The position numbers and the translations under genes were made by a program. 64,000 bases of DNA from a virus, in IMG/VR virus record IMGVR_UViG_3300040758_000113, one strand, 5' to 3'. Below are positions 128 through 63,463 of the stretch, in pieces (position 1 is the stretch's first letter; each line of letters starts with the position of its first letter). The notes beneath the pieces were generated by a model, which saw only the letters and a program-made list of their open reading frames with translations, did no database searches and was not told the DNA's origin.

Positions 128-880
128 GTGGGGGATACGGTAATGAACAACGGAAAATACCATCGTGAGGATTTAACTGGACAACAATTTGGGTGGTGGA
201 CGGTGGGGGAACGTCAACCCGTAGGTTCAAGTCACTCGGGAGTAGTTTATAAATGCAGGTGCAAATGTGGCACTGAAAAGCTGGTGTCCGCTAGTGTCCT
301 CCATCAAGGGGTATCTACAAGCTGCGGATGCAGGCGAAAGCAGCGTATGGATTTGACTAGTAAACGTTTCGGAAAATTAGTTGTGGTAGAAAGAACCAAG
401 GCACCCCCACATTATAAAAGCAAAAATGCACAATATTGGTTATGCCGATGTGATTGTGGAAACACCTTGATTGCTACAACAGGGAATCTCAATTTTTATC
501 CCCGTAGTCAATCAGGGGGGTGTAAGGCTTGTTCACCAAGACGAAACAAATATAGGTTGGAAAAACATAAGTCTACCCCGGAATTCAGGCTGTGGGAAAA
601 AGCTAAGAGCCGTGCCAAAAAGCGGGGGATTTTATTCAACATTTCTCCAGATGACATCATCATTCCAGAGGTTTGCCCCCTCTTGGATATAAAACTTACC
701 CATAAAAAACATGGTTGGGATGGAAATACTCCCTCGTTAGATAGGAAAAACCCCTCATCCGGGTATGTTAAAAGTAATGTTTGGGTGGTGAGTTTTAGAG
801 CTAACTTGTTAAAAAATAACGCCAGCCGGAAAGAGCTTGAAAGGCTTATAGAAAGGATGAAAGCCCATGGAATCGACTGA
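128..880 (+). CDS. HNH homing endonuclease (HNH_3-like C-terminus, two Cys-rich N-terminal repeats)
   Basis: C-terminal LDRKNPSSGYVKSNVWVVSFRAN motif; tandem YKCRCKCG / YWLCRCDCG zinc-finger-like repeats. Confidence 0.7.
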   Translation: MGDTVMNNGKYHREDLTGQQFGWWTVGERQPVGSSHSGVVYKCRCKCGTEKLVSASVLHQGVSTSCGCRRKQRMDLTSKRFGKLVVVERTKAPPHYKSKNAQYWLCRCDCGNTLIATTGNLNFYPRSQSGGCKACSPRRNKYRLEKHKSTPEFRLWEKAKSRAKKRGILFNISPDDIIIPEVCPLLDIKLTHKKHGWDGNTPSLDRKNPSSGYVKSNVWVVSFRANLLKNNASRKELERLIERMKAHGID

Positions 881-1838
881 AATTTATGACCGAGTAGCGG
901 TAAGTTTTTCAGAGAAGGTTAATGAGGTATTTGAGTCTGAACAAACCCTCAAGGATTGGTTTTTAAAACACTTTTCTAACCTTACCTTTGACCGAACAAA
1001 TAACTGGGGTGGTCTTATTTACCTGCTTTTTAGAGATTCTTGGCTGGAGGCCGGGCCAGAAGTTAAGGCGGAGCCGACCGGCTATGACCGGAGTGTAGTT
1101 CTCAAGAAGCTCACAACCCTGCTGGACTACAACCTCTTCACACAGGTGATGCTCAACCTGCAATCGTATGTTGGCATGGCATACCAAGCTTTGAGCGCCG
1201 AACAGGACCTCAAGACCATGGAAGAGTGGTGGAAGAACAACAAGCGTAGCCCCTTCATGCCGGGGTCGAAAATGGTGAAGCTTTCCGCCAACATGACGAC
1301 GGAGGATGAGAAGTTCAATCAGGACCTCAGCACCATCCGGTCATTGAAAATCATCGCCAACTTTACCCCCAACCTTTCATGGCGGGTCAGCCCCAAGGGC
1401 AGCACCCCGGCGCTGGTGGACAGCAATAATGTCAGCAGCCTTGGTATCGGGGCGGACAGGTATCTTAAGGTGATGCCCGGCCTGCGGGCCTCTTATGTCT
1501 TTTGGGGGCCGGGGAGCGGGCCGACCATGGCAACTATTCCCCCGGCGTCTTCTGACCACATCACTTTCCAAGCGGAAGGTATTCCCTATGTGTTCCGTTC
1601 CAAGTCGGGCGGAGAAATCCTCAATCAAGTTCTGTTCTCCCGCCGTATGGCCTACAACATTTTCTGTGCTCACGATGTGGCAAACGAGACGTGCATCATC
1701 GTCCCGAGAATGAGTTCCATCCTCGTGGTGCATGACGACAACAGTTACAACTTACGCCATGCTATCGAGCCTTATTTGGATGGTGGTGTGATTCAGTTGG
1801 CAGAGGGGTCAAGAAGTGACCCCGCTTCAAAGGAGTAG
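867..1838 (+). CDS. hypothetical protein (323 aa)
   Basis: long ORF, ATG overlapping upstream stop (coupled). Confidence 0.6.
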   Translation: MESTEIYDRVAVSFSEKVNEVFESEQTLKDWFLKHFSNLTFDRTNNWGGLIYLLFRDSWLEAGPEVKAEPTGYDRSVVLKKLTTLLDYNLFTQVMLNLQSYVGMAYQALSAEQDLKTMEEWWKNNKRSPFMPGSKMVKLSANMTTEDEKFNQDLSTIRSLKIIANFTPNLSWRVSPKGSTPALVDSNNVSSLGIGADRYLKVMPGLRASYVFWGPGSGPTMATIPPASSDHITFQAEGIPYVFRSKSGGEILNQVLFSRRMAYNIFCAHDVANETCIIVPRMSSILVVHDDNSYNLRHAIEPYLDGGVIQLAEGSRSDPASKE

Positions 1839-1841
1839 CCT

Positions 1842-2153
1842 GTGCCTGTAGCCAAGAACAGAAAGTGCGGGCTTTTTATTAAGGGAAAAATCTGTGGCAA
1901 GCCCGCCTATAACATAGAGGGAAACTGGTTTCCTCTACAGGGTTGGGGACAACTCTGGTTCTACTGCGATGAGCATTGGGCTGTCCGTAACAAACTACGA
2001 CGTATCCTCGGTCAAGGGTACGCCCATGCCGTCGCCGTCTTGAACTACTGCTCCCTCGGGAGCGGCTACAATCGCCAGGGTGGTCTCCTAGCTCTGCTCT
2101 TTGTAAGCAGTGGCCTTTACGTTGATGAGCGGCTGGGTTGCAACCGCCGATGA
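1842..2153 (+). CDS. hypothetical Cys-containing protein
   Basis: GTG start 8 nt after AAGGAG; converges on and overlaps minus-strand gene by ~66 nt. Confidence 0.3.
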   Translation: MPVAKNRKCGLFIKGKICGKPAYNIEGNWFPLQGWGQLWFYCDEHWAVRNKLRRILGQGYAHAVAVLNYCSLGSGYNRQGGLLALLFVSSGLYVDERLGCNRR

Positions 2154-2453
2154 TTTGGTGGTCTTGCTGTGGGTGTGTTCCACACCCATTTGACAATACT
2201 GACAATCCGGGAATTTTTCCACCCTCTTTATTTCCGGCTTGATTTCCACGAACACCGGGCACTCATAGACCGGCGTGGTCATGCCATGCTTGACACAGTA
2301 TTCATAAAGCTCCTGCTCCTTGGGGCAGTTTTCCGGGGTCCCCGGCTTGAAGGAGGCGCACTTGAAGCACAGACAGTTGCCCCGGTGCGTTCCCTTGAGC
2401 CGGTCTTCCACAAACACCTTTACTCCGTGATGCTCGTACTGAACGATTGCCAT
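2088..2453 (-). CDS. hypothetical Cys-rich protein (121 aa)
   Basis: ORF with multiple CxxC-like pairs. Confidence 0.5.
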   Translation of the reverse strand: MAIVQYEHHGVKVFVEDRLKGTHRGNCLCFKCASFKPGTPENCPKEQELYEYCVKHGMTTPVYECPVFVEIKPEIKRVEKFPDCQYCQMGVEHTHSKTTKSSAVATQPLINVKATAYKEQS

Positions 2454-2521
2454 TATTTTCTCGCTTTCTTTGCTTTCTTCTCGGCGGTCCGCAGCTTCTT
2501 AATGCCGACTTCCTCAATTTT

Positions 2522-5320: not shown

Positions 5321-5371
5321 AAAGAATAATACTGGGATTTTTCCAATTTTTGTGTATTATTTATACAGCCG

Positions 5372-5968
5372 TCAATCATCGTCCGGCTTGACTTTGTAGT
5401 GTTCTTCTCCATGGCAATTTTTACATAGTGGTTCTAGGTTATCGGGATTGTTACTTCCCCCATCTACAACATAAATTTTGTGGTGAAGTTCGATATTATA
5501 GGGTTTGTCATACTTACATCGAACACAAATAAGGGCAGCCTTGCCGAACTGACGAACCCACTTTAATCTAAGACTAGCTCGATTAGTAATGACACCCCAA
5601 TCCATGCGTTGTCCAACATTTTTGCACTGTTTTGAACAATAGTTCTTCTTTCTTTTTCGGAAACGAATGGCCGATTTATATCGTTTATATGATTTCCCAC
5701 AGATGCAACACTTAAATTCAACTTTACCTCGACAGTTGGGGCAATAGTGGTTTTTTATCCTATCAGTTGGCATCCCGACCTTGATGAAGTAGTTTTTGCA
5801 TACGGAACACCCCACTGTGTGGGTCTTTACAGTTAATTCCCGCCGACATTTTTTACTGCAAAAGTGCCTCTGATTCCTACGTTTTAACCACGTTTGTATC
5901 CGATTTTCAGACTTTGAAAACGTTTTGTTGCAACCACTACAAATTACGTCAGGCATAATCACCCCCAC
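5372..5968 (-). CDS. HNH endonuclease with repeated Zn-ribbon modules
   Basis: HHKIYVVDGGSNNPDNLEPLCKNCH motif; CxxC...YCSxxC repeats. Confidence 0.75.
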   Translation of the reverse strand: MGVIMPDVICSGCNKTFSKSENRIQTWLKRRNQRHFCSKKCRRELTVKTHTVGCSVCKNYFIKVGMPTDRIKNHYCPNCRGKVEFKCCICGKSYKRYKSAIRFRKRKKNYCSKQCKNVGQRMDWGVITNRASLRLKWVRQFGKAALICVRCKYDKPYNIELHHKIYVVDGGSNNPDNLEPLCKNCHGEEHYKVKPDDD

Positions 5969-6126
5969 TATATGAAAGTCATAGTCAACGTATATTTTGT
6001 TTGTAGAGTATTTTATAGTGGAGGGTTACGCCAAGGAAAATCACCTTGACCCCACCAGCCGAGAGTACGCCTTGACGGGCATATCCACGGCGAAGTCCAA
6101 CGCCATTTCGTTACGGGAGGCACAGA

Positions 6127-7467: not shown

Positions 7468-7474
7468 CTGACAT

Positions 7475-7500: not shown

Positions 7501-7509
7501 AGCTTGGCG

Positions 7510-8536: not shown

Positions 8537-8636
8537 ATGGTGTTCCTTGGGAATTGGAAGGGGAACCGGGAGTCCAACCCGGATTGCCCGTTTAGAAGAC
8601 GGGTGCCTTTTGCGTTAGACGATTCCCCCGTAAATT

Positions 8637-8726
8637 TGGTACCCCCGGCAGGACTCGAACCTGCGATGCCTTTCGGCATAGACAGTTTAGGAAACTGTTG
8701 CGATGTCCATCTCCGCTCACGGGGGC
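8637..8726 (-). tRNA. type-II (long variable arm) tRNA-like gene; anticodon loop read by hand as UUCCUAA (CCU)
   Basis: encoded CCA, GCAGG-TTCGAGT-CCTGC T-arm, paired acceptor GCCCCCG/CGGGGGT, variable-arm hairpin ATGCC-GAAA-GGCAT. Confidence 0.6.
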
Positions 8727-8736
8727 GTAAACTTGT

Positions 8737-9534
8737 TTATTTCCTTCCTAGCCTCCAACCATCACAGAGGCGGTTAATAACTTCGGATGCCGCAATTTTG
8801 ATTGCTACGCCATCTTTACATAACCAGCGCACAGGTGGTCTTTTTCTATTAGCTTCCCTCAAGGCTGCTATTACATGCACCGGTCGTGGTTTCCCACGCT
8901 TTGCCTTGGCTATTTTTTCACCAAAGCCTTCTGGCATTTTTTTGCCTTTATTCCAAGCCGAGGTTCTTCCTTTTAATGCTTCCCGCATTTTTTGCTTACT
9001 GGTATCGGAGTGTTTCCAGCCAGACTTGTGGGGAGCTTGTGGTTTTCCAGCTCTTCTCCTGTTTGATTCTGCAACAGCCTTTCTAGTGCTTTCTGGGACT
9101 GAGTGTCCCCTTTGGGAGGCACTCATCCTTTGTCTAGTCTGCTCTGAACAATGCTTACCAAACATTGGATTTCTTTCGCCTTTGTTCGCCTCTTTGAATT
9201 TTTGACGAGTAGCCTCATTCGCAACTACCCCTCCGCCTCCAAGAGTTGAGTTGTATCCATATTCAGGGTCGCACGCCTTAAACTTTTCAATATAGGAGAC
9301 CTCAAGGGTATCCAATTCTTCTTTGGAGAAGGCAACATTTATACGATAGGCTTTGAAGCTACCTTCTCCATATTTTCGGATGGCATTATAGAAGTATGCA
9401 CAATTTGTCCCACCCGCTTTGGCTCTCCTACAATGAGCCAGCCATCGCTCGTGCAGGGTTCTTATGGTTTGCCCGATATATACCTTGTTGTTGACTTGGT
9501 TTACGATAATGTATACTTCCCCATATGGCTCCAC
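8737..9534 (-). CDS. GIY-YIG homing endonuclease
   Basis: VYIIVNQVNNKVYIGQT N-terminus; basic repeat-rich C-terminus. Confidence 0.8.
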   Translation of the reverse strand: MEPYGEVYIIVNQVNNKVYIGQTIRTLHERWLAHCRRAKAGGTNCAYFYNAIRKYGEGSFKAYRINVAFSKEELDTLEVSYIEKFKACDPEYGYNSTLGGGGVVANEATRQKFKEANKGERNPMFGKHCSEQTRQRMSASQRGHSVPESTRKAVAESNRRRAGKPQAPHKSGWKHSDTSKQKMREALKGRTSAWNKGKKMPEGFGEKIAKAKRGKPRPVHVIAALREANRKRPPVRWLCKDGVAIKIAASEVINRLCDGWRLGRK

Positions 9535-9567
9535 TTAAACTCTCCTTCAATGAATGGGGTAAGTAGT

Positions 9568-10119
9568 TCATTTATCAAGTACAACATTCCAGTATAGGTA
9601 CGGTGCGTAATCTTTCCACTCGTTCCTTATCTTGCTGATATGCAGCTTGAAGTTGAAGCGGGGGTCCGTGGGCTTCGGCGTATAGGGCTTGCTGAGCAAG
9701 GTCATGCCCGCCTGCGCCGGGGTACGTCCGGCCTTTTCCTTGTTGCACGGCATACAGGCGATGGCAAGGTTGTCCCAGTCGGACTTGCCCTTCTGGCAAA
9801 GCGGGATGACGTGGTCAATCGTGTATTCCGAGGTGTGGACCACCTTGCCGCAGTACTGGCATGTTGCATTGTCACGCACTAACAGGTTGCGCCGGGTGCA
9901 GGGGACGGACTGCTTCTTACGGCGATGCCAAGCGTTGCGAACGACTATCACCCTTGGCATGCCCATTTCAAAGGACGGTGAGTGCAGGACCTTCCCGCCC
10001 TCGTCCTCCTTGACAATCTTGGCACGGTCCTCGAACCAGAGCTTGACGGCGTTCTGCCAGCCCATGAAGCCCACGGGTATCCAGTTCATGTCTAGTACAA
10101 GTACGTCAGCGTATCCCAT
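9568..10119 (-). CDS. HNH endonuclease
   Basis: YCGKVVHTSEYTIDHVIPLCQKGKSDWDNLAIACMPCN. Confidence 0.8.
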   Translation of the reverse strand: MGYADVLVLDMNWIPVGFMGWQNAVKLWFEDRAKIVKEDEGGKVLHSPSFEMGMPRVIVVRNAWHRRKKQSVPCTRRNLLVRDNATCQYCGKVVHTSEYTIDHVIPLCQKGKSDWDNLAIACMPCNKEKAGRTPAQAGMTLLSKPYTPKPTDPRFNFKLHISKIRNEWKDYAPYLYWNVVLDK

Positions 10120-10742
10120 AGAGCCTCCTTATCTAAGATTCGGAAAACCGTTAATCCTCGCTCGTTGCCACACCGAATGTGATCGATGGCTAATTGCCGG
10201 TAAGCCTGCGCACGACCCCTATAGCCGTCCATCGCTCTTCGCACTCCGGTATCCGCCCATAGGACTAGGCGGCGAGTCAAGCTTTTAGGGTTTGGGCGGG
10301 GTGTAACCGGTCTTCTCTCAGGTTCATATCCATCGAATTGGCCGGTCTCATTGCCGTACACCATACGGGTTGATGTGGTCGGGTTTCTTATGGTGTCTCA
10401 CCCCGAGGCCCACTGCGTTGTCCTAACGCTCTCACCCCGCCCGAACAGCGCCCCTGTGACCACGCCCTTAAGACATCGCCCCCGGTTATGTCAACTCACC
10501 AGAGACTTAGGTCGGTCAGGAGCACCAACTTAAACCCAACGGCGTGCAGCCAGCGTACTGGCGGTTTGGCTTCGCTTTCTACGGGGTTAATGACCGGTCC
10601 CCCTCGTCGCCCGGAAGCCGCTTGTGCAGGCACGGTATCCCGATTTCTGCCACGACAACCGTTCCCATCAGTCTTGCCGACCCTACGGGACCTTGCACGC
10701 CATTCTTGGTAATACCACAGAGATTGAGAAACAAACGAATAA

Positions 10743-11144
10743 TTAAATTTCAGGATGGTGCTCCTTCCTGTGACAGTTAGAGCATAGTATTTCGCATTTT
10801 CTTATCTCAGCAAGGATTCGTTTCTTTCCCCAACCTTGGTTCACAGCTTGCCTTATTGACATGTCTTTTTTGCTTGAATCTCTATGATGAAAATCTAAAC
10901 ATGCAGGATGATTTTCCGGGCAACGAGCACATTTTAGAGAGCGTTTGAACTCCTTGAACCAATCTCTAATTTCTTTCCTTTGGTTCTTTGCTCGGATAAG
11001 ATATGGCTCTTTGTGATTTTGATAATGTTTTCTCCTGTATGCTTTCATTTCTTCTTGATGAGATGTTTTCCAAGCTTCTGTCGCCATACAATCCTCCAAT
11101 ATATGAGTTGCATAGCGTAGATTTGGAGACTCTATCTGCACCAA
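10743..11144 (-). CDS. HNH endonuclease
   Basis: CARCPENHPACLDFHHRD...CSNCHRKEHH. Confidence 0.8.
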   Translation of the reverse strand: MVQIESPNLRYATHILEDCMATEAWKTSHQEEMKAYRRKHYQNHKEPYLIRAKNQRKEIRDWFKEFKRSLKCARCPENHPACLDFHHRDSSKKDMSIRQAVNQGWGKKRILAEIRKCEILCSNCHRKEHHPEI

Positions 11145-11163
11145 AAATTTACATTAGAATCTT

Positions 11164-11251
11164 GGCAGGGGTGGAGGGATTTGAACCCCCAGTATCCCGA
11201 AGGAAGACGGTTTTGGAGACCGCTGGGCCGAACCAGATTGCCCGTCACCCC
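11164..11251 (-). tRNA. type-II tRNA-like gene; anticodon loop read as CUCCAAA (CCA); atypical A8/C9
   Basis: encoded CCA, GGGGG-TTCAAAT-CCCTC T-arm, 7-bp acceptor, 18-nt variable arm. Confidence 0.5.
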
Positions 11252-11349
11252 TAAACTCACGCCGGTGTCTTATCCAAATAAACGAAGGTCAAGACCAAGA
11301 GTACCATGGTTATCTTGGTCACAGCTACCATGAGGCTACGCTGTACCAT

Positions 11350-11422
11350 GTCCTACGGGGACTCGAACCCCGTTTTTCCGGCTGCATCATGGGAGACGCT
11401 CTACCATTGAGCTACGCCCCGC
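11350..11422 (-). tRNA. tRNA-like element (canonical D-arm GTAGCTCAATGGTAGAGC and T-arm; acceptor/anticodon not resolved by hand)
   Basis: GGGG-TTCGAGT-CCCC T-arm; G-1-like 5' end. Confidence 0.35.
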
Positions 11423-11502
11423 ATGGCGGGGCGACGGGACTCGAACCCGCAACCTTCTCCCTGAATCAATCCCCGGTATCCTACCATTGAATGACGGGTC
11501 GC
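11423..11502 (-). tRNA. tRNA-like element (T-arm and CCA present; acceptor pairing not resolved)
   Basis: TGG + CGGGGCG + ACGGG-ACTCGAA-CCCGC on plus strand. Confidence 0.35.
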
Positions 11503-11581
11503 TGGGGGCGTTCTGCCTGACGGGAAGGCTACTCCATGCGATTATCCGGTGGGACTCGAACCCACATTTTCCGGGCTAGCT

Positions 11582-11658
11582 TGGCTCCGAGGGGAGGACT
11601 CGAACCTCTCATTAACCGGGTCAGAGCCGGTTCTCCTACCGTTAGAGGACTCTGGAAT
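11582..11658 (-). tRNA. tRNA-Gln(CUG)-like (imperfect acceptor stem)
   Basis: anticodon arm ACCGG-GTCAGAG-CCGGT gives loop CUCUGAC; GGAGG-TTCGAGT-CCTCT T-arm; encoded CCA. Confidence 0.45.
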
Positions 11659-11718
11659 ATCTTGCTATTTACGTCAACTTTTAGCCCCAGAGGGGTAAAC
11701 TTGACGTATAAATCAATC

Positions 11719-11798
11719 TTGGTCGGCGTGGGGAGATTTGAACTCCCGACCCCTCCGCCCCGAACGGAGTGCTCTAAACCGGGCTGAGCTACACACCG
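11719..11798 (-). tRNA. tRNA-Pro(CGG)
   Basis: full cloverleaf by hand; loop UUCGGGG; acceptor CGGTGTG/CACGCCG; encoded CCA. Confidence 0.8.
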
Positions 11799-11808
11799 AA
11801 AATTTAAA

Positions 11809-12399
11809 TCAGACGACCCCGGAATAATCTTTGCTTTTATTTCCCGGAACCCAATCCGCAAATAACCCAAGCTCCCTAACTTTTCGCATTGTATCAGCGA
11901 TTAGTAACCACGCTTTGTAGGGCATATTTCCTCGAACAATGTTACATCTTGTGCAACAGGGAATTACGTTACTTTTCAAATGACCCCGCATGTTATCTAA
12001 TCGGTCCAACCCAATGCGTAGTTCTCTTTGGGTTACTCCACAGTATCGGCAGCCAGTGGATATAAGAGCAGCTACGTAGTTCCGGTCAAGGTCGCAGGCA
12101 AACCCATGGCGTTTATCCCAACTCTTGCAGTCGTTTGTAACATGCCTTGCTTCGCCTTTATACCTTTGGGTGCTTAGAGTCTGTTTCCTTCGCTCGTAAA
12201 CCCCCTCGGTCATTCCATGTCGAGGTTTCCAACGTTTGTTATGCTTATTAAAGCAAATACGGCATAGAAATCGGTAATACTTATTCCCATTAGACCAACG
12301 TGTTGGGAAGTTCTTACCGTCCTCAGTTAATGCCTTCCCACATTTTTTGCAGATGTGTGGAAGTCTTACATTCACTCCACCAACTTCTTGACTCTTCAT
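11809..12399 (-). CDS. HNH endonuclease (start moved to MKSQEVGG; upstream part of ORF is antisense of a tRNA)
   Basis: LDRLDNMRGHLKSNVIPCCTRCN HNH_3-like motif; Cys-rich N-terminus. Confidence 0.65.
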   Translation of the reverse strand: MKSQEVGGVNVRLPHICKKCGKALTEDGKNFPTRWSNGNKYYRFLCRICFNKHNKRWKPRHGMTEGVYERRKQTLSTQRYKGEARHVTNDCKSWDKRHGFACDLDRNYVAALISTGCRYCGVTQRELRIGLDRLDNMRGHLKSNVIPCCTRCNIVRGNMPYKAWLLIADTMRKVRELGLFADWVPGNKSKDYSGVV

Positions 12400-12443
12400 A
12401 CTAATAGATACTGAAGTCAGAAGATTGGTCGGAGTGATATTTT

Positions 12444-12518
12444 TGGTCGGGGCGAGAGGATTTGAACCTCCAACGACTTGCTCCCAAAGCAAGTGGGTTA
12501 CCGTTACCCTACGCCCCG
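12444..12518 (-). tRNA. tRNA-Pro(UGG)
   Basis: anticodon arm CTTGC-TTTGGGA-GCAAG; acceptor CGGGGCG; encoded CCA. Confidence 0.8.
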
Positions 12519-12555
12519 GCACAAGTTAGGCCGTTCAGCTACAGCCCGTAAACTT

Positions 12556-12630
12556 TGGTCAGGTCCGGCAGAGTCGAACTGCCAATCACTAGTCCCCCAG
12601 ACTAGGGCATTACCATTATGCTAGGACCTG
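12556..12630 (-). tRNA. tRNA-Pro(GGG)
   Basis: anticodon loop CUGGGGG; perfect acceptor CAGGTCC/GGACCTG; encoded CCA. Confidence 0.75.
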
Positions 12631-12786
12631 ATAATGGAGGTTTGGCAGTACTCCCCCAGCTAATCAGAGCCAGTACTCGTCAACCTCCAAACGGTGACGG
12701 ACAATGGGAGGTTTTCACCTCTCGGGCCTCAGCCCACATACTCAAACCGGTTAGCCTTGCCAGTCCAGTATGCTTCCGCCATAACT

Positions 12787-12861
12787 TGGTAGCTCGCACA
12801 GGAATCGAACCTGTGACATCCGCCTTATGAGAGCGGCGTTCTGCCACTGAACTAGCGAGCC
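12787..12861 (-). tRNA. tRNA-Met(CAU), elongator-like
   Basis: anticodon loop CUCAUAA; D-stem GTTC/GAAC; encoded CCA. Confidence 0.8.
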
Positions 12862-12981
12862 AGAACGTACGTGGTGTTTGGGAGCCATGATGGTTGCGCT
12901 GCGCCACACCATGAGTATGTTACCCGACAATTACGCCGCCCAAACAATGGCCTTTTAAGGGGCACTCACGTACGGCTTGAG

Positions 12982-13052
12982 TTGCATGGGTGGAATCGAA
13001 CCACCGACCTCCCGGTACCCCGGTCGCTCTTCCGCTGAGCTACAAGACAACC
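12982..13052 (-). tRNA. tRNA-like fragment (T-arm GGTGG-TTCGATT-CCACC plus palindromic CCGGGGTACCCCGG hairpin instead of anticodon arm)
   Basis: no encoded CCA; acceptor pairs only 5/7. Confidence 0.3.
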
Positions 13053-13058
13053 CTAAGA

Positions 13059-13135
13059 TGGTAGCGGGGATGGGAATTGAACCCACCTTTACAGAGCTTA
13101 TGAGACTCCGAAACTCACCAGAGTTATACCCCGCA
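13059..13135 (-). tRNA. tRNA with CAU anticodon (Met/fMet/Ile2 candidate; U1-U72 mismatch)
   Basis: anticodon arm GGAGT-CTCATAA-GCTCT; encoded CCA. Confidence 0.7.
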
Positions 13136-13144
13136 TCAAACCAT

Positions 13145-13185
13145 ACGCTACACCGCATATCTGTTGCTAATACGCTGTAGCGTAT
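13145..13185. promoter_or_regulatory. 10-bp perfect inverted repeat ATACGCTACA...TGTAGCGTAT between two tRNAs
   Basis: seen directly in sequence. Confidence 0.4.
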
Positions 13186-13190
13186 CAAGG

Positions 13191-13264
13191 TTGCGGAGGC
13201 TGGATTTGAACCAGCGGCCTGTTGGTTATGAGCCAACCGAGCTACCTGACTGCTCTACTCCGCT
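13191..13264 (-). tRNA. tRNA with CAU anticodon (A1-A72 mismatch, initiator-like end)
   Basis: anticodon arm GTTGG-CTCATAA-CCAAC; D-stem GAGC/GCTC. Confidence 0.7.
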
Positions 13265-13270
13265 ATAACT

Positions 13271-13348
13271 TGGTGCCTCCCCAGAGAGTCGAACTCTGTT
13301 CTCCCGCTCTTCAGGCGGGCGCTATGCACCGCATCAGCTAAAGAGGCA
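13271..13348 (-). tRNA. tRNA-Phe(GAA)
   Basis: anticodon loop CUGAAGA; encoded CCA. Confidence 0.8.
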
Positions 13349-13378
13349 AAACCAAACTTTCAAACTTCTCGGCATTAT

Positions 13379-13415
13379 CTTGAGAGCACCTTAAGTCCTA
13401 TAATACGCTCTCAAG
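13379..13415. promoter_or_regulatory. hairpin CTTGAGAGC...GCTCTCAAG with CCTATAAT in loop
   Basis: 9-bp inverted repeat; same CCTATAA loop motif recurs upstream of two GIY-YIG genes. Confidence 0.35.
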
Positions 13416-13422
13416 AGCATCT

Positions 13423-13498
13423 TGGTGGGTCGGGAGGGAATCGAACCCTCAACCTTGGGCTTAAGAGGCCCCTGCTCTGCCAGTTAAGCTACCGACCC
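13423..13498 (-). tRNA. tRNA-Lys(CUU)
   Basis: loop CUCUUAA; perfect acceptor GGGTCGG/CCGACCC; encoded CCA. Confidence 0.8.
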
Positions 13499-13503
13499 AA
13501 ATT

Positions 13504-13580
13504 TGGTACCGCCGAGAGGACTCGAACCTCCAACTCCTCGGGCAAGAGCCGAGTACTCTGTCCAGTTGAGTTACGGCGGC
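13504..13580 (-). tRNA. tRNA, anticodon read as CUU with G37 (isotype uncertain)
   Basis: anticodon arm CTCGG-CTCTTGC-CCGAG; encoded CCA. Confidence 0.6.
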
Positions 13581-13586
13581 ACATCT

Positions 13587-13666
13587 TGGTGGAGCCGGTG
13601 GATTGGGTGCCCACGACCGTCCGCTTAAAAGGCGGCTACGCTTAACCACATCTGCGTCACGACTCC
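13587..13666 (-). tRNA. tRNA-Lys(UUU) (non-canonical T-loop)
   Basis: loop CUUUUAA; acceptor GGAGTCG/CGGCTCC; encoded CCA. Confidence 0.65.
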
Positions 13667-13672
13667 ATATTT

Positions 13673-13747
13673 TGGCTCTGGAGGAGGGAATCGAACCCCC
13701 AACCATTCGGTTAACAGCCGAACGCTCTACCGTTGAGCTACTCCAGA
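13673..13747 (-). tRNA. tRNA-Asn(GUU)
   Basis: loop CUGUUAA; perfect acceptor TCTGGAG; encoded CCA. Confidence 0.8.
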
Positions 13748-13912
13748 AGAAACTGTCTCCTTCTCAGGCGGATATATAGACGAGTTGTTATGACACATCG
13801 TCCCTGAGTGCTCGCCTGAACCATACAACGGCTGGTGCTGTTTGCCCTCACAACCTGCCAACCAAGGGCGACCCTCATCACACCAGCGACACTCGCTCAT
13901 ACGACCTCAAAC

Positions 13913-13985
13913 TGGCTGGGACGGCAGGACTCGAACCTGCATTCTCCGGGTAACAGCCGGGCATCTTACCATTGGATGACATCCC
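13913..13985 (-). tRNA. tRNA-Asn(GUU)-like second copy
   Basis: loop CUGUUAC; encoded CCA. Confidence 0.6.
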
Positions 13986-14133
13986 AACAAACAGTGACCA
14001 GTGACAACCGCCCTCCGCAGGGGCGGGAAGTGCATAGCTGGGGACCTCGCCTGTTCCGAAGAACTGGTGCCCTGCTTACCACCGAACCCATCAGACTCGC
14101 CATCCCTTTGGGTGCGTCACGTGGTCTCAATCT

Positions 14134-14213
14134 TGGAAGCCCCGAGGGGATTTGAACCCACTGACCTTCGGTTTCGTAGACCGCTGCTCTAGTCCGGGCT
14201 GAGCTACGGGGCC
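14134..14213 (-). tRNA. tRNA-Arg(ACG)
   Basis: loop CUACGAA; acceptor GGCCCCG/CGGGGCU; encoded CCA. Confidence 0.8.
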
Positions 14214-14620
14214 TCAATCTTGTACCAACCTCTTTCTTTCTCTGTTTTACGACGGTGACAGTTGGCGCATCGCACGTCGCACTTAACTATCTCAGCCTTT
14301 ATCGTCTTTAATGATGCCTTCATTTGTGTCATTAAAGTTGAAACGGCTGCTAATTTCTTTTCTCCTTCCCGATGGTCAAACTCAAGGACTATCGGGTCAG
14401 ATTCTCCACAGTCGATACAGGGGTGAGTCATCAAATACTGTAAGACCCACTCTATGGCTTCTTTCCTATACCTTGCACCATTCCGTTTCGCTTTTTCAAC
14501 ATACGAGGTCTTATTCCTCTCGTAGTTTTGCTTATTGTAGCCTCGCTGGCATTCGAGGCAGTATGGTGCTGACCGGTGCTCTTTTTCCTTACCACATTTG
14601 TAACAGTTCTTAGACCTCAT
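14204..14620 (-). CDS. HNH endonuclease
   Basis: CIDCGESDPIVLEFDHREGEKK...CANCHRRKT; 3' end overlaps tRNA-Arg by ~10 nt. Confidence 0.8.
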   Translation of the reverse strand: MRSKNCYKCGKEKEHRSAPYCLECQRGYNKQNYERNKTSYVEKAKRNGARYRKEAIEWVLQYLMTHPCIDCGESDPIVLEFDHREGEKKLAAVSTLMTQMKASLKTIKAEIVKCDVRCANCHRRKTEKERGWYKIEAP

Positions 14621-14659
14621 ACTAAAGGACTACGAAGTCCAATTACTGTTTTCAAATCT

Positions 14660-14735
14660 TGGAACCCCTGACAGGATTCGGACCTGCGACCATCCGGGTC
14701 GAAACCGGGCGCTCTGTCCACTGAGCTACAGGGGC
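14660..14735 (-). tRNA. tRNA-Arg(UCG)
   Basis: loop UUUCGAC; acceptor GCCCCTG/CAGGGGU; encoded CCA. Confidence 0.7.
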
Positions 14736-14741
14736 CTAATC

Positions 14742-14819
14742 TGGAAGTCCCGGTCGGATTTTAACCGACGACCTTCTCCTTCGGAGGGAGTTGCTCTATA
14801 CGGGCTGAGCTACGGGACC
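14742..14819 (-). tRNA. tRNA-Arg(CCG)
   Basis: loop CUCCGAA; acceptor GGTCCCG; encoded CCA. Confidence 0.75.
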
Positions 14820-14902
14820 ATATATTGGGGTGAATGACGAAGTGGGCTGCCCCCGCCCCCTCGGACCAGACCGAGTACCCTGTGGGGTTCACTCACCAAA
14901 CT

Positions 14903-14977
14903 TGGGGTGACTGAGGGGAATCGAACCCCCGTATCCTGATTCACAGTCAGGCACTCTGCCACTGAGTTACAGTCACC
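14903..14977 (-). tRNA. tRNA-His(GUG) with G-1
   Basis: loop CUGUGAA; extra 5' G opposite C73. Confidence 0.8.
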
Positions 14978-15011: not shown

Positions 15012-15389
15012 ATGACTTCCACTGTCTTTAATATGGGACAGTGGATTCATAGAATGCTTTTTGTTAACAAAGAAACTAAAACCGGGCTTTGTGCCGCCTG
15101 TGGAGATGTTAAAGTGCGACTCAAAGGTGGTAAGTATCTTTGCCGTAACTCACAAGCCCGTTGGACTGGAAGGTGTAACTACCCCTCTCATCCATACCGA
15201 GATAAGTCAAACCCCCCGAGAGTCTGCGATGAATGCGGCTTTGTTGCTAAATGCTCGTGCCAGATTGACATCCATCACATTGATGACAACCACGCTAACA
15301 ATCAGCCAGAGAACCTCCGTCCTCTATGCGTATGTTGTCACCGACTCATTCACTGCAAGTGCAAAATAAAAAAGCCCACAGAACCTTGA
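15012..15389 (+). CDS. HNH endonuclease
   Basis: CDECGFVAKCSCQIDIHHIDDNHANNQPENLRPLCVCCHRLIH. Confidence 0.8.
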   Translation: MTSTVFNMGQWIHRMLFVNKETKTGLCAACGDVKVRLKGGKYLCRNSQARWTGRCNYPSHPYRDKSNPPRVCDECGFVAKCSCQIDIHHIDDNHANNQPENLRPLCVCCHRLIHCKCKIKKPTEP

Positions 15390-47670: not shown

Positions 47671-48363
47671 ATGTTCTATACTTACATGTGGTTACGTGAC
47701 TACCCATGTCCAGTTTGTGGACAGGTGGGATGCCCCTACTATGTTGGTAAAGGACACGGAAGACGAGCATTTGTAAAACATAAAGTAGGCAATAGATATT
47801 TTTCTCCTCCAACTAATCCTGATTGTATCTTAACTCAGGAGTGGCCAAACGAAGTCCACGCATTGGATGGAGAGAAATTCTTAATAGCTATGTATGGGCG
47901 AATAGACCAAGGAACTGGGTGTCTAAGAAATGGGACTGACGGAGGAGATAGGTTATGTAATCCATCCTCGGAGATTCGTAAAAAGATGGCAAAAGCCGGT
48001 AGAAAAAGTGTAGAAAACGGTCGTATCTATCTCCTTGCAACCAAGGAAAGCTGTAGTAAAGGAGGAAAGATTGGTGGAAAAATAACTGGTAGAATACAAG
48101 GCAGAAAAAATGTAGAGACTGGTCACCTTGCTTCTATTGTTACAAAAGAAAGTTGTAGTCGGGGAGGAAAAACTGCAATAACCAAGATGAATCATGAGGC
48201 TCATGTTCGTGGCGGCAAGGTTGGCGGCAAATTGAATGGTCAAAAGAATGCTAAGAATGGGGTTCTTATCAAAGCTTCTTGCCAACGATGGAACATCAAT
48301 CATGGTAAGCCTTGCACCTGCGGCAGACATCCTAGCCCTCAATCCTCAATCCTCAACCAGTAA
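47671..48363 (+). CDS. GIY-YIG homing endonuclease with NUMOD3-like repeats
   Basis: MFYTYMWLRD...PYYVGKG; repeated KESCSKGGKIGG; C-terminal QRWNINHGKPCTCGRH. Confidence 0.7.
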   Translation: MFYTYMWLRDYPCPVCGQVGCPYYVGKGHGRRAFVKHKVGNRYFSPPTNPDCILTQEWPNEVHALDGEKFLIAMYGRIDQGTGCLRNGTDGGDRLCNPSSEIRKKMAKAGRKSVENGRIYLLATKESCSKGGKIGGKITGRIQGRKNVETGHLASIVTKESCSRGGKTAITKMNHEAHVRGGKVGGKLNGQKNAKNGVLIKASCQRWNINHGKPCTCGRHPSPQSSILNQ

Positions 48364-50690: not shown

Positions 50691-51077
50691 ATGACAACTA
50701 AGGAACGAGAACAAAATTGGCGTAAGTTTTCAAAATACTACACCACAACTAAGGGCCGGGCGGCTTTCATGCTCAACAATGCTCGGAAAAGAGCAATAAA
50801 GGATAAAGTGCAGTGTCTTATAACTCAGGACTGGATTAGAAAAAAATTAGAACGGGGAGTATGTGAAGTAACTAACCTACCCCTTGAGTTAAATGTTGGT
50901 AATGGTAAAGGAAGTAGAACAAACTCATTTAGTCCCTCCTTAGACCGCAGAAATCAAACAGGAGATTATTCACCAGAAAATACTCGCCTTACTTGTTGGA
51001 TTTATAATAGGGCACGAGGTGCTTTTCCTGATGTTGATTTTGACAGGATGGTAAACGCACTAAAAACTAAATGTTAG
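50691..51077 (+). CDS. HNH endonuclease (HNH_3-like)
   Basis: SLDRRNQTGDYSPENTRLTCWIYNRARG. Confidence 0.6.
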   Translation: MTTKEREQNWRKFSKYYTTTKGRAAFMLNNARKRAIKDKVQCLITQDWIRKKLERGVCEVTNLPLELNVGNGKGSRTNSFSPSLDRRNQTGDYSPENTRLTCWIYNRARGAFPDVDFDRMVNALKTKC

Positions 51078-61213: not shown

Positions 61214-61921
61214 TTAAGAGTCTAGTGGTAGTGCTTCAACAAACTTCTGTCCCGTACCTCGGCTTTGATTTTTAGCTAGATTACTCATTTTGGCACGGTA
61301 TTCGGGGTTTGTCCATCGCTCTCTTTGAAGTGCTGCTTGTTTTTTCCTTCTCTCTGGGTCAGACCATGTTTTCTTATTAACCGTGCTCATTTTACTGTGA
61401 AAATCAAGATTTTCAAAAGCCTTCATACGATTAGAACGAGAATAAGGGTCCGCCCATGAATCCCTAATCGCTTGAACCCGATTAGAAAAAGACTCAGGTT
61501 TAGCCCAGTCAGCTTTGAGATTTGCCGATTGCTTGGCTCTTTTTTCGGGGTTAGCCCAAGCTCGTTTAACCCCTTCACTCATTTTAGCACAAGTTTGAGA
61601 AGAATGCAGTCCGGTAAACCCCTCCCCTCCACGACAAAGATTGTAGCCATACTCAGGGTCTTGAGCACGAAGGAACTTGATGAAGTCCCGCTCGGTCTCA
61701 TCAAGCTCGGCTTTAGCTTGGATATCGGAACGGAGGGCGTGGATGGACCAAAGATGAGGAAAGGGGTGTTTACGCATGGAATTATAAAGACGAGAATTTC
61801 CCCCTCGTCCGTGTCTGGCATCTGAAAATTTTTGTTGAAGGTACTTCTTTAGATTATTACCTGTATGTTGACCGACATAATACTTTCCTGTTTCATGATT
61901 TACAATCAAATAGATAAACAT
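61214..61921 (-). CDS. GIY-YIG homing endonuclease (paralog of 24675..25523)
   Basis: MFIYLIVNHETGKYYVGQH; about 75% identity over N-terminal 100 aa with the other copy. Confidence 0.8.
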   Translation of the reverse strand: MFIYLIVNHETGKYYVGQHTGNNLKKYLQQKFSDARHGRGGNSRLYNSMRKHPFPHLWSIHALRSDIQAKAELDETERDFIKFLRAQDPEYGYNLCRGGEGFTGLHSSQTCAKMSEGVKRAWANPEKRAKQSANLKADWAKPESFSNRVQAIRDSWADPYSRSNRMKAFENLDFHSKMSTVNKKTWSDPERRKKQAALQRERWTNPEYRAKMSNLAKNQSRGTGQKFVEALPLDS

Positions 61922-61954
61922 GAACTTTCCCCCTATAAGTGCTTCAGAAAGTTC
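61922..61954. promoter_or_regulatory. hairpin GAACTTTC...GAAAGTTC with CCCTATAAG in loop upstream of GIY-YIG gene
   Basis: 8-bp perfect inverted repeat. Confidence 0.35.
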
Positions 61955-61964
61955 ATTTATTCTG

Positions 61965-62678
61965 TCATTGAATATTTTCTAGCCAATCTGCGGCATCCTG
62001 CGTGGAAATGAGGCTTTTAGACCAGTTTGGGCGGTCGTGTGGACCCATCTCCAAGGTCACTTCTCCCTTGAATGGCATCATCAACAGAGCCTCGGTGATG
62101 AGTCGGCGGCTCTTTGTGACATTTCGTGCCTGTATGGAAAACTGACCAGCATCCCGGTCAACCCGGAGGTGCCCATTCTCCATGGCAAGGTTCTCGGCAT
62201 ATCCGAGGTAATCCTCTCCCCCCTGCTCCTCCACCTCTGAATCATCCATGCCGCACAGGTCTTCCGCCATCGCCCACTCTCCGTGGAGTTCGTAGGGGTG
62301 AGTCATGGGGAGAGGTCGCCCGTCCCGAGATATCCAACCTCCATTTTGAGAAAGCCTAGACCAATCGGCGGAGCGTTCAGGCCACGGACCGGACGGTTGC
62401 AGAAGGGGATTTACTCTGCGCCGGGCAGCCTTCACCCGGAAGCCTCCCTTTATCTTCCCACCGTAGACTTGCTCTTCTTCATTAACGTGGGGAGTCTTGT
62501 ACAAAGATGAGTCGTAGCCATCAGGAGAGTAGTTAAATAAGAGGCTTTCTAACTCTTTTTTCTCCATTATATTGGGTGAATGAACAAACCACCGCTTTAT
62601 GGAAAGATTGTTATCAATAACATAACGAGCAGCGGTTAGTCCAAGACCGCCTGCCTCTGGTTGTGTTAAATCTCTCAT
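61965..62678 (-). CDS. hypothetical protein (237 aa)
   Basis: ORF. Confidence 0.6.
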   Translation of the reverse strand: MRDLTQPEAGGLGLTAARYVIDNNLSIKRWFVHSPNIMEKKELESLLFNYSPDGYDSSLYKTPHVNEEEQVYGGKIKGGFRVKAARRRVNPLLQPSGPWPERSADWSRLSQNGGWISRDGRPLPMTHPYELHGEWAMAEDLCGMDDSEVEEQGGEDYLGYAENLAMENGHLRVDRDAGQFSIQARNVTKSRRLITEALLMMPFKGEVTLEMGPHDRPNWSKSLISTQDAADWLENIQ

Positions 62679-63463
62679 ACATCAGGCTTTCTGTATTCAG
62701 CCATCTCCACTCTTTGCTTTTCGAGACATCTAATACAACGACTGTAATTAGGGGCAACTGGATTGCTACAACACTTACATTCCCCACGGGCAGCTTTAGC
62801 TACCCTTAACCGTTTCTGTCCTTCCGCTCTTTGACACCTTTTTCCGCAATAGATACTCTGACCACTCTTGTTAAGGAAAGATACCCCACATCTGGGACAA
62901 ACCAAAATCTCGTACTCTCGTGGACAAGTTATCCGTACATACCCCAATGCCTCAAGTCTCTTTCGTTCGGCGGCTAACTCTCTGGTGTGCTTGTTATGAC
63001 AAATCTTGCACAATATCCGTCCATTACTTACTTCATATCTAAACTCTGGATAGAGAGACCATGGCTTTATGCGGTCAGCCTCTAACCCATCACTAGACCC
63101 GCATAAGACACAGTGGGGTCCATCTCTTTCAAAGACCGCTTTCCGCCAACGACGAAGCTTACCGGAACGAATCTCTTTCTTTCTATTTCCCGCTATACCG
63201 CCTCGCCAGTTTCCATTTTTATCCCCCTCCTTATGTTTACGCTTGCATTCAATACTACAGGTGACATATCTATAAGCTACTGAGGCGCTTACGGAAAATA
63301 CCTTATTACAAACGATGCACTCCTTTTTGACCTTGTCCTTTTGTAGCCACTCCCTTCTGCACTTATTAGAACAGAGCTTCACAATAGGAACGGAGTTCTT
63401 AGCATAACGACGCTTGAAGTTCCCCCCACAAACGGTGCAATTGCCTCTAATAGTCATTCGCAT
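62675..63463 (-). CDS. HNH endonuclease with multiple Zn-ribbon repeats
   Basis: LCGSSDGLEADRIKPWSLYPEF...ILCKICHNKH; CxxC...CSNKC repeats like 5372..5968. Confidence 0.75.
   Translation of the reverse strand: MRMTIRGNCTVCGGNFKRRYAKNSVPIVKLCSNKCRREWLQKDKVKKECIVCNKVFSVSASVAYRYVTCSIECKRKHKEGDKNGNWRGGIAGNRKKEIRSGKLRRWRKAVFERDGPHCVLCGSSDGLEADRIKPWSLYPEFRYEVSNGRILCKICHNKHTRELAAERKRLEALGYVRITCPREYEILVCPRCGVSFLNKSGQSIYCGKRCQRAEGQKRLRVAKAARGECKCCSNPVAPNYSRCIRCLEKQRVEMAEYRKPDV

Follow-up and report, generated by a model that had tools for sequence, protein, structure and literature searches.

A 64-kb segment of a jumbo phage genome crowded with genes of homing-endonuclease families, nearly all of them missing from an 89%-identical relative

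The 64,000-nucleotide stretch of viral DNA analysed here (IMG/VR virus record IMGVR_UViG_3300040758_000113; the window) belongs to the ~338-kb genome of a jumbo phage that has very probably been colonised many times by free-standing homing endonuclease genes (of the HNH/His-Me finger, including EndoVII-like forms, the GIY-YIG and the LAGLIDADG kinds) and by one intein. Of the 21 open reading frames (ORFs) that a first-pass annotation had singled out, 20 belong to families of the homing-endonuclease type, and the elements together occupy 12,736 of the 64,000 bp, or 19.9% of the window. Comparison with a genome lacking the copies, which that annotation had proposed as a check, bears out the claim of mobile genes: at the corresponding sites of a relative with which the window shares 89.3% identity over 38.8 kb of aligned DNA, none of the elements is found except the HNH gene at 9568, so that 20 of the 21 are missing. 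The elements are recognisable members of their families, modular in make-up and foreign in base composition, and they are present here and absent there with clean junctions.

The window is 100% identical to part of ENA metagenome contig ERZ27250039 k141_400892 (338,351 bp), its base 1 corresponding approximately to base 245,474 of that contig. Neither 8.7 kb of the sequence (megablast) nor a 1,561-residue ORF (tblastn) has a match in the INPHARED phage collection. The G+C content is near 0.52, and there are 27 tRNA genes in two minus-strand arrays. Large genes of the window encode major-vault-protein-like, ClpB-like AAA+ and collagen-repeat proteins and giant 'polyvalent' proteins, one of them with an ADP-ribosyltransferase domain.

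Elements are referred to below by their first position; their coordinates, and those of the tRNA arrays, are collected in the table. All of the ORFs named in the first-pass annotation were found where it had placed them, and its two LAGLIDADG elements (22971 and the intein at 44660) and single endonuclease VII gene (39128) stand. Its other counts require adjustment. Twelve of the at least 14 HNH genes claimed are supported, and four of these 12 are EndoVII-like proteins of a separate type, called LDR here; the six GIY-YIG genes claimed come down to five. The revised tally is thus eight classical HNH genes, four LDR genes, one endonuclease VII gene, five GIY-YIG genes, one LAGLIDADG domain fusion and one LAGLIDADG intein. 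The sole ORF that could not be verified is 35006, which has no match in Pfam, PHROGs or NCBIfam.

Profile searches with Pfam and PHROGs combined recover most of these ORFs. Pfam on its own recovers a minority above the cut-offs of its models: HNH in 5372, 9568 and 62675, GIY-YIG together with NUMOD3 in 8737, NUMOD3 in 27234, Endonuclease_7 in 39128 and LAGLIDADG_3 in the ClpB-like ORF, with Intein_splicing just below. Most of the others are found only through PHROGs profiles. Nine of the 21 elements have no match to a nuclease family in Pfam at E <= 0.01 and several others are sub-threshold; extending the Pfam search to E values up to 10 and adding NCBIfam left 35006, 43494, 47671, 128 and 50691 unclassified. 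(What this exposes is a blind spot of annotation: Pfam misses many elements of this sort.) The beta-beta-alpha-metal motif is indicated by family profiles from Pfam and PHROGs in 5372, 9568, 62675, 10743, 14204, 33917 and 27234, and weakly in 15012. The genes that flank the nuclease elements are intact and not split. Apart from the intein, the nuclease genes are regarded as free-standing because no group I intron family reaches the Rfam gathering score anywhere in the window, in a scan confined to that score in which tRNAs were the only hits. The ORFs of two window-specific segments, 35021-36449 and 36618-37691, are without PHROG matches, and no further endonuclease genes were found there.

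Table. Nuclease elements and tRNA arrays of the window, with their best-supported profile matches (E values) and, where given, G+C content
Position	Strand	Feature	Profile matches; G+C
128..880	+	LDR-type gene (EndoVII-like His-Me finger), two N-terminal CxCxCG…CGC zinc modules	phrog_3322 3.6e-32; phrog_374 3.3e-29; G+C 0.44
5372..5968	-	HNH gene with three FCS-like zinc ribbons	Pfam HNH 4e-10; phrog_1271 9e-14; G+C 0.40
8555..14976	-	tRNA array 1, 19 tRNAs, interrupted or flanked by seven nuclease genes	
8737..9534	-	GIY-YIG gene with two NUMOD3, at edge of tRNA array	Pfam GIY-YIG 8e-10; NUMOD3 8e-18
9568..10119	-	HNH nuclease gene	Pfam HNH 1.4e-13, HNH_5 2.8e-12; G+C 0.56
10743..11144	-	HNH gene next to tRNA-Trp, 33% identical to 14204	phrog_3106 7e-23; phrog_2255 3e-21
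11809..12399	-	LDR-type gene between tRNA-Pro(tgg) and tRNA-Pro(cgg)	phrog_1035 2e-13; phrog_3322 3e-12
14204..14620	-	HNH gene between tRNA-Arg(tcg) and tRNA-Arg(acg)	phrog_2255 5e-29
15012..15389	+	Small HNH gene beside tRNA-His, weakly supported	phrog_7545 4e-5; Pfam HNH_3 7.6e-4 (below cut-off)
22971..23891	-	dATP/dGTP-diphosphohydrolase-like gene with I-CreI-type LAGLIDADG domain (~22971-23400) as in-frame 3' fusion	
24675..25523	-	GIY-YIG gene with FCS-like zinc ribbon in C-terminal half	phrog_314 2.6e-15; G+C 0.37
27234..27887	-	HNH gene with NUMOD3, between dCMP-deaminase-like and ThyX-like genes	phrog_655 5e-45; NUMOD3 1e-9
33310..34869	-	tRNA array 2, 8 tRNAs, holding HNH 33917; 35006 remnant just beyond	
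33917..34543	-	HNH gene between tRNA-Leu(cag) and tRNA-Leu(gag)	phrog_10822 6e-46 (aa 2-164)
35006..35257	-	Unverified HNH-like remnant (67 aa) in 1.4-kb window-specific segment 35021-36449	Motif only
39128..39559	-	Endonuclease VII gene, N-terminal zinc ribbon	Pfam Endonuclease_7 6e-21; G+C 0.435
43494..44147	+	Probable GIY-YIG gene of a family without Pfam match, terminal RWNVHRGKPCTCGKH knuckle	
44660..45868	+	403-aa intein with LAGLIDADG, in ClpB-like AAA+ gene (44312-46645)	LAGLIDADG_3 3.8e-8
46706..47326	+	LDR-type gene, N-terminal CxCxCG module	phrog_3322 1.7e-11; phrog_3118 1.2e-9; Pfam HNH 1.2e-3 (below cut-off)
47671..48363	+	GIY-YIG gene of a second family without Pfam GIY-YIG match, GRKNVExGH repeats and RWNINHGKPCTCGRH knuckle	
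50691..51077	+	Minimal LDR-type gene	phrog_3322 9e-23
61214..61921	-	GIY-YIG gene, catalytic paralog of 24675, C-terminal WxDPExR repeats	phrog_314 2e-15; Pfam GIY-YIG 5.8e-4
62675..63463	-	HNH gene with zinc ribbons on both sides of nuclease core	Pfam HNH 7e-5; phrog_1271 2e-22

In IMG/VR the relative (IMGVR_UViG_3300041809_000571) is represented by two viral contigs, of 316,945 and 237,553 bp, that are nearly identical; a scan of metagenome contigs returned only this same relative, under its JGI name. Relative to it, the elements of the window are inserted in intergenic spacers, between tRNA genes and in a ClpB-like gene that is intein-free there, with junctions that are mostly clean and, for 24675, 27234, 61214, 43494, 15012 and the intein, base-precise. 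The window has 910 bp at GIY-YIG gene 24675 where the relative has 8 bp, and the corresponding lengths are 779 and 24 bp at 61214, 787 and 51 bp at 43494, 710 and 19 bp at 27234, and 443 and 54 bp, again with clean junctions, at 15012. The genes flanking 46706 (ClpB-like and membrane-protein) lie 43 bp apart in the relative, and the tRNA spacers that hold 11809, 14204 and 33917 measure 23, 20 and 5 nt there. Elsewhere the relative has DNA of its own: 327 bp facing 888 bp at 128, 263 bp with a second tRNA-Trp facing 490 bp at 10743, an unrelated 263 bp facing 511 bp at 39128, an unrelated 230 bp facing 999 bp at 62675, a 95-residue ORF in place of 8737 and different genes at the position of 47671. 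HNH gene 5372 replaces a 326-residue radical-SAM-like gene of the relative, the last 63 codons of which remain at 5997-6188, and where the window has 50691, the polyvalent protein of the relative extends into a C-terminal GP88 domain. Segment 35021-36449, with the 35006 remnant, is absent from the relative.

The nuclease genes also differ from their surroundings in base composition, with G+C contents of 0.37-0.48 (pooled, 0.44) as against 0.533 for the rest of the window; 9568 alone is like the backbone. The part of the relative that was scanned has few such genes. Among 138 of its ORFs, covering ~102 kb, the table of Pfam matches lists only single Endonuclease_7 and HNH_5 matches for nuclease types, and no nuclease-type family is among those matched by at least two ORFs; two HNH genes lie in its tRNA arrays. 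Its extra DNA is mostly ordinary cargo, such as radical-SAM-like, epimerase, Thg1, CCA-adding enzyme and collagen-like genes. Sequence identity between the two genomes changes abruptly at several of the insertions: from 83-86% on the left of 24675 to 97-98% on its right and from ~80% to 94% across 43494, with only 70% over the 100 bp immediately left of 27234, and 85% over the 100 bp that border the intein at either end, as against ~94% further out. These steps, together with the 55%-identical host gene into which the LAGLIDADG domain of 22971 is fused, would fit co-conversion or exchange boundaries, as read from one pairwise comparison.

Two of the five GIY-YIG genes, 43494 and 47671, match nothing in Pfam and no annotated PHROG, and belong to sizeable metagenomic families. 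Their assignment comes from comparison with a bona fide GIY-YIG profile built from 8737, 24675, 61214 and their homologues. The family of 47671 aligns with this profile at 97.3% probability (hhalign, E 2.7e-11), NUMOD3 is present in 14 of 32 homologues, and the top Foldseek matches, although weak, are GIY-YIG domains of UvrC. The family of 43494 aligns at 57% (hhalign, E 1e-4). Its N-terminal domain is modelled by AlphaFold2 with a predicted local distance difference test score (pLDDT) above 90 and has UvrC and the I-TevI GIY-YIG domain as top Foldseek matches, at E values of 0.14 or more that are not significant. Y6, Y8, Y19, G21, R26, H30, E70 and N88 are invariant among 58 homologues, at nearly the positions of the I-TevI catalytic set. 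43494 is thus probably a GIY-YIG gene. The C-terminal parts of the five proteins differ and hold candidate DNA-binding regions: NUMOD3 in 8737, a zinc ribbon in 24675, WxDPExR repeats in 61214, and GRKNVExGH repeats and a Cys/His knuckle in 47671 and 43494.

A 38-nt element is conserved on the minus strand just 5' of three of the GIY-YIG genes, at 25526-25563 (24675), 61921-61958 (61214) and 9536-9573 (8737). Folding predictions for the 24675 and 61214 copies give a hairpin in which AUGAACUUUC pairs with the ribosome-binding site and start region (-10.3 kcal/mol, z -1.7, and -13.4 kcal/mol, z -2.5, respectively); no such fold is predicted for the copy at 8737. As a general motif of the window, the GIY-YIG upstream motif was rejected, with four matches where 6.9 are expected by chance, and a promoter and terminator scan around 24-28 kb gave nothing above shuffled controls.

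The four LDR genes (128, 11809, 46706 and 50691) have an invariant C…L-D-R…N…N pattern in common. They match phrog_3322, phrog_1035 and phrog_374 (annotated 'endonuclease', 'endo VII' and 'HNH') with E values from 1e-11 to 4e-32, and a HMMER search with 50691 gathers 3,117 cluster representatives. (The listed ORF of 11809 starts at 12522, overlapping a tRNA; the ATG at 12399 is the likely start.) They are not filed as classical HNH genes because they have no invariant His and because sampled members of their family have no Pfam HNH match. Instead, an hhalign comparison of the LDR-family profile with a profile of the phage's own Endonuclease_7 paralogs gives 89% probability (E 2e-6) and places LDR over the DH of the catalytic motif and a conserved Asn over the metal-binding Asn. 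As far as sequence comparison goes, the LDR genes are thus EndoVII-like His-Me-finger relatives without the canonical general base. Like the other elements, they are low in G+C and absent from the relative. An Endonuclease_7 paralog outside the window in the same contig (L023:6284-6796, minus strand) reads IDRD where others read VDHD or VDHN, which is the same His-to-Arg change as defines the LDR family.

Among the classical HNH genes, 9568 stands apart. Its ortholog in the relative is 75% identical in protein and 86.7% in DNA, and it is probably a resident gene. HNH gene 33917 covers only the first 161 of 245 positions of the phrog_10822 profile and is probably a truncated, decaying copy; the 3' end of its ORF reads through two tRNA-Leu genes (33899-34069). 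ORF 35006 has only a DH…CxxCN motif, in a frame without a usable start upstream of CxCxxC (CQCPGC), and is an HNH-like remnant at best. Endonuclease VII gene 39128, of which there are at least four paralogs elsewhere in the 338-kb contig, is by its sequence probably a free-standing homing endonuclease of the F-CphI kind, and a role in Holliday-junction resolution is also possible.

The two LAGLIDADG elements are lodged in host genes. The N-terminal part of 22971 matches Pfam dGTP_diPhyd_N (4.7e-10, residues 18-108), the MazZ-type (d)GTP diphosphohydrolase domain known from adenine-replacing phages. The C-terminal half, with the motif LAALVDGEG, matches LAGLIDADG_1 below the cut-off (0.007), phrog_5046 over residues 169-304 (3.5e-17) and, in a phmmer search against PDB, I-MsoI, I-CvuI and I-CreI over the full domain (E 0.008-0.02); it has no start codon of its own. 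The counterpart in the relative is a 176-residue protein without LAGLIDADG that is 55% identical in sequence, in neighbouring DNA that is ~90% identical, which suggests that the endonuclease may have arrived along with a foreign allele of its host gene. Further genes for dCMP-deaminase-like and ThyX-like proteins lie at 26789-28594. The intein starts with CFITG and ends with VHN followed by Ser, so that the window reads KLVG-[C…VHN]-SPPGYLGH where the unbroken ClpB-like gene of the relative reads KLVG-SPPGYLGH (1,211 bp against 2 bp). Intein_splicing matches at 6e-8, below its gathering score (33.1 against 35.8 bits). N-terminal Cys, C-terminal His-Asn, Ser at +1, an embedded endonuclease and an uninterrupted relative together identify it, by sequence, as an intein.

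In the tRNA arrays, the order of the tRNAs is the same in both genomes, but the relative has 37 tRNAs, separated by spacers of 5-23 nt, and the window 27, being without, for example, both Lys(ttt) copies, Leu(taa), Ser(tga) and the second copies of Trp, Gln and Phe. Thinner arrays and nuclease-gene insertions coincide in the window. The two HNH genes in the arrays of the relative are of other families and lie in neighbouring spacers, one of them a single spacer on from the site of 14204. At 33313-33396 (minus strand) the window has a tRNA that Rfam scores as tRNA-Sec, at the gathering score (47.1 against 47), and ARAGORN as tRNA-Ser(cga). An RlaP-like RNA-repair nucleotidyltransferase is encoded at 16426-17448 (minus strand), and the relative also encodes Thg1-like, CCA-adding (PolyA_pol) and cREC_REC proteins near its tRNA arrays; these genes suggest a toolkit for tRNA repair or maturation.

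DNA-binding modules recur across the nuclease families. The CxxCGKxF…YCSxxC-type ribbon that the first-pass annotation had noted in HNH 5372, HNH 62675 and GIY-YIG 24675 is confirmed in all three: the pattern CxxC[GN]Kx[FY]…C[SGP]xxC occurs six times among 533 ORFs, only in these proteins, and not once in 200 shuffles. Residues 125-280 of 24675, which contain the ribbon, match phrog_1271, the same HNH family that 5372 and 62675 match. Looser ribbons are found at the N-termini of EndoVII 39128, HNH 14204 and LDR 11809. The RWN…GKPCTCGxH ending is likewise common to 43494 and 47671, as had been claimed, and is kept in both families (C206 and C208 are invariant). A tandem module of ~60 residues, CxCxCG…CGC (L.G..FGKL.V…W.C.C.CG…SCGC), forms the N-termini of LDR 128 and 46706 and also the C-terminus of GIY-YIG protein P0156, encoded by the same contig outside the window (E 1e-12 to 1e-14). 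Domain swapping, in the sense that interchangeable modules recur across nuclease superfamilies, is therefore borne out. One GIY-YIG catalytic domain has five paralogs in the contig (at least three in addition to 24675 and 61214), and their C-termini are all different. That 24675 and 61214 are paralogs of about 75% identity, as first reported, holds for residues 1-109 (DNA ~76%) and fails beyond the GEGFTG linker, where the C-termini are unrelated. All-versus-all alignment of the endonuclease proteins found the remaining pairs in the window to be at most 33% identical or undetectable as relatives.

By analogy with the seg and mob genes of T4, the genes would spread by homing. In a mixed infection with a related phage that has no copy of the gene, each nuclease would cut that phage's allele close to where its own gene resides, recombinational repair would then be templated by the gene-bearing genome, and the cut genome would thereby receive the nuclease gene along with part of the DNA around it. 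In each of the proteins a small catalytic domain is combined with variable, putatively DNA-binding modules (NUMOD3, FCS-like ribbons, CxCxCG…CGC, GRKNVExGH/knuckle and WxDPExR). The identity steps and the replaced genes would fit double-strand-break repair with co-conversion and occasional collateral deletion, on the evidence of one pairwise comparison.

Several points weigh against this account of repeated colonisation. Cleavage activity, target sites and homing itself are attributed to the window genes by analogy with the seg and mob genes of T4. Only one relative is informative, and gain in one genome and loss in the other are not formally separable. Near-identical contigs from different samples show no variation in presence or absence, and thus no sign of current mobility. 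The LDR genes have Arg for the canonical general-base His, without any invariant His, none of 75 sampled members of their family matches a Pfam HNH model, and among their weaker PHROG matches are families with the annotation Srd anti-sigma factor or sigma-70 decoy; it is possible that none of the four is a nuclease. For 15012 and 43494 the family assignment has modest support. Since 33917 looks truncated and 35006 degenerate, some of the copies have probably ceased to function.

The first-pass annotation read the load as the product of active duplication within the genome and of domain swapping; on that reading, most of the endonuclease genes would be recent copies of others already present. 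In its favour, one GIY-YIG catalytic domain and its conserved 5' element are present in at least five copies in the contig with different C-termini, there are five EndoVII-type and four LDR-type paralogs, and different superfamilies within the genome have DNA-binding modules in common. Nevertheless, recent duplication is improbable as the main source: the paralogous catalytic domains are just 72-82% identical to one another, every one of them has a closer homologue outside (84-96%), often on other ~340-kb contigs, no DNA repeat of nuclease genes exceeds ~76% identity, the remaining pairs are as divergent as already stated, and the uniformly low G+C content points to import. Of the original interpretation, mobility and modularity are thus upheld by the absence of 20 of 21 elements from the relative and by low G+C, and active intragenomic duplication is not. 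What the sequences indicate is a GIY-YIG family with hypervariable C-termini whose expansion took place across a group of jumbo phages and not as a recent burst in this genome; the pattern of paralogs would fit old paralogy, or import on several occasions from a pool to which phages of ~340 kb have common access. It is also possible, if doubtful, that the genes are kept for the benefit of the phage, excluding the markers of competitors or, in the case of those in the tRNA arrays, driving the amplification or remodelling of tRNA genes against host defences that target tRNAs. Seven nuclease genes in or beside two tRNA arrays, the difference in tRNA content (27 against 37), the conservation and backbone-like G+C of HNH 9568, and a documented precedent for SegB association with tRNA genes and SegB-driven amplification (PMC13096335) are all in keeping with such a benefit. 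On the other hand, the window has fewer tRNAs than the relative, 33917 and 35006 look decayed, and some of the genes sit where the relative has an intact radical-SAM-like gene or a GP88 domain; a benefit to the phage is, moreover, compatible with homing.

Loss presents the converse case, in which a loaded common ancestor gave rise to a relative that was purged. The comparison is limited to two lineages, established theory predicts that homing endonucleases are gained and lost in cycles, and precise loss could take place through recombination with gene-free genomes. Loss on this scale would, however, require twenty independent and nearly scar-free deletions, including exact removal of the intein to restore KLVGSPPGYLGH and the return of tRNA spacers to 5-23 nt, and the low G+C content of the nuclease genes argues against long residence; a purge is accordingly unlikely. 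That the accumulation is an artefact, a chimeric contig that pools the endonuclease genes of many strains, is scarcely credible. The sequence does stem from metagenome assemblies, but independent JGI, ENA and Logan assemblies are 99.3-100% identical to it where they overlap it (1-11838, 37759-51043 and 62323-64000, parts that include 13 of the 21 elements). This agreement among independent assemblies from several samples rules out chimeric assembly, and the insertion junctions are clean and lie between intact genes. Repeated colonisation by homing endonuclease genes remains the preferred explanation.

Elements of this kind, and the way in which they move, are familiar; what stands out is how heavy the load is, how many nuclease families it spans and how sharply a close relative differs. 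T4 has 15 homing endonuclease genes in 169 kb, making up 11% of its coding potential, and has been called an oddity for it (PMC2988022). Its seg (GIY-YIG) and mob (HNH) genes resemble those of the window in lying in intergenic spacers between conserved genes, in being absent from close relatives and in their two-domain build, and segB, in the tRNA region, resembles one class of window genes. A hairpin over the ribosome-binding site is a feature of I-TevI, segB and mobE (PMC2988022), and is predicted for two of the GIY-YIG genes here; in T4, translation of homing endonucleases is controlled by such hairpins. The window differs in having ~20 genes in 64 kb (the 19.9% given above), in having no intron-encoded members that could be found, and in the additional presence of EndoVII-type, LDR-type and LAGLIDADG forms. 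Pectobacterium phage CB7 (Certrevirus) has 23 genes (21 HNH and two LAGLIDADG in inteins), five of them intron-borne, accounting for ~7% of 142.8 kb; the number was described in 2020 as being among the largest on record, and many of the genes are missing from relatives such as CR3 (PMC7344957). The load of the window is about three times denser and draws on more nuclease families. A literature search, of incomplete coverage and thus weak as evidence, found no homing-endonuclease count above that of CB7. Skunavirus genomes are ~30 kb in size, which would give them a comparable density per kilobase. These lactococcal phages have one to eight HNH genes per genome (PMC12724721).

Other features of the window have precedents as well. 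The tRNA region of phage T5 carries HNH genes. In T4 and T6, segB is lodged among the tRNA genes (PMC2988022, PMC13096335); in the window, by comparison, five to seven genes of the HNH, LDR and GIY-YIG types occupy the arrays. The T5orf172/IPA-HNH genes of ICP1-like Vibrio phages have repeated zinc-finger modules (CxxC…CxC type), undergo domain swapping, in which one nuclease domain is found with different binding domains and one binding domain with different nucleases, and are located at exchange boundaries (Barth et al. 2023, PMC10448857). The same three features recur here, the siting at exchange boundaries being judged from one pairwise comparison, but the nuclease families and zinc modules are different and no T5orf172 match was seen. 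F-CphI of cyanophage S-PM2 is a homing endonuclease with the Endo VII catalytic motif (PMC6083498). Gene 39128, likened to it by class, is small and free-standing, encodes an Endonuclease_7 domain and varies between relatives; the four LDR genes differ from F-CphI in being more distant EndoVII relatives without the catalytic His.

Sampling of the rest of the contig turned up 12 further nuclease genes in 50.9 kb: two in the 9.1 kb upstream of the window, six in segment L023 and four in segment L026 (both of these were located through an endonuclease gene, so each is biased upward by one). Extrapolation from 33 elements in the 115 kb sampled would lead to ~65-100 genes genome-wide. It is therefore conceivable, and put forward tentatively, that this ~338-kb phage carries the heaviest load of homing endonucleases yet seen in a phage, with unrecognised families among them and with remodelling of the host genome. 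If so, most of the load would have been acquired since the split from an 89%-identical relative that is nearly free of such genes. The unrecognised families would be two GIY-YIG subfamilies, in which GRKNVExGH repeats and a terminal RWN…GKPCxCGxH knuckle together make up the DNA-binding region, and a very large EndoVII-derived LDR family that behaves here like a mobile gene although its catalytic His is gone. Remodelling of the host genome would comprise two truncated or replaced genes, thinner tRNA arrays and the in-frame fusion of LAGLIDADG to a gene of nucleotide metabolism. The two genomes constitute a natural before-and-after pair from which ~20 candidate pairs of nuclease and target site can be read off the alignment. 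They may provide a system for following the speed of invasion, decay and damage to the host genome by homing endonucleases, and a source of new site-specific nucleases and DNA-binding modules. The understanding of how homing endonucleases work is unchanged by these findings.

Some observations on the remainder of the window may be added. A segment of ~35 kb (2033-36618) is inverted with respect to the relative (122838-80401), and 1-1838 and 37691-64000 run in the same order in both genomes. Neither genome was found to have repeats bordering the inversion, at one junction of which 12.8 kb of additional genes are present in the relative. The gene at 30809-33241 (plus strand) encodes an 810-residue vault-like protein, in which Pfam recognises the Shoulder (8e-22) and Vault_3 (2e-10) domains of the major vault protein; it is 94% conserved in the relative and unusual for a jumbo phage. 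Three adjacent giant ORFs on the minus strand (51067-55104, 55079-59764 and 59773-61197, of 1,345, 1,561 and 474 residues) have a repeated domain of ~130 residues in common; the versions in the relative differ by insertions of 3.5 kb and 0.4 kb. The ORF at 51067-55104 has an ART-PolyVal ADP-ribosyltransferase domain and a weak match to Tpt1/KptA, and that at 55079-59764 has a nucleotidyltransferase domain.

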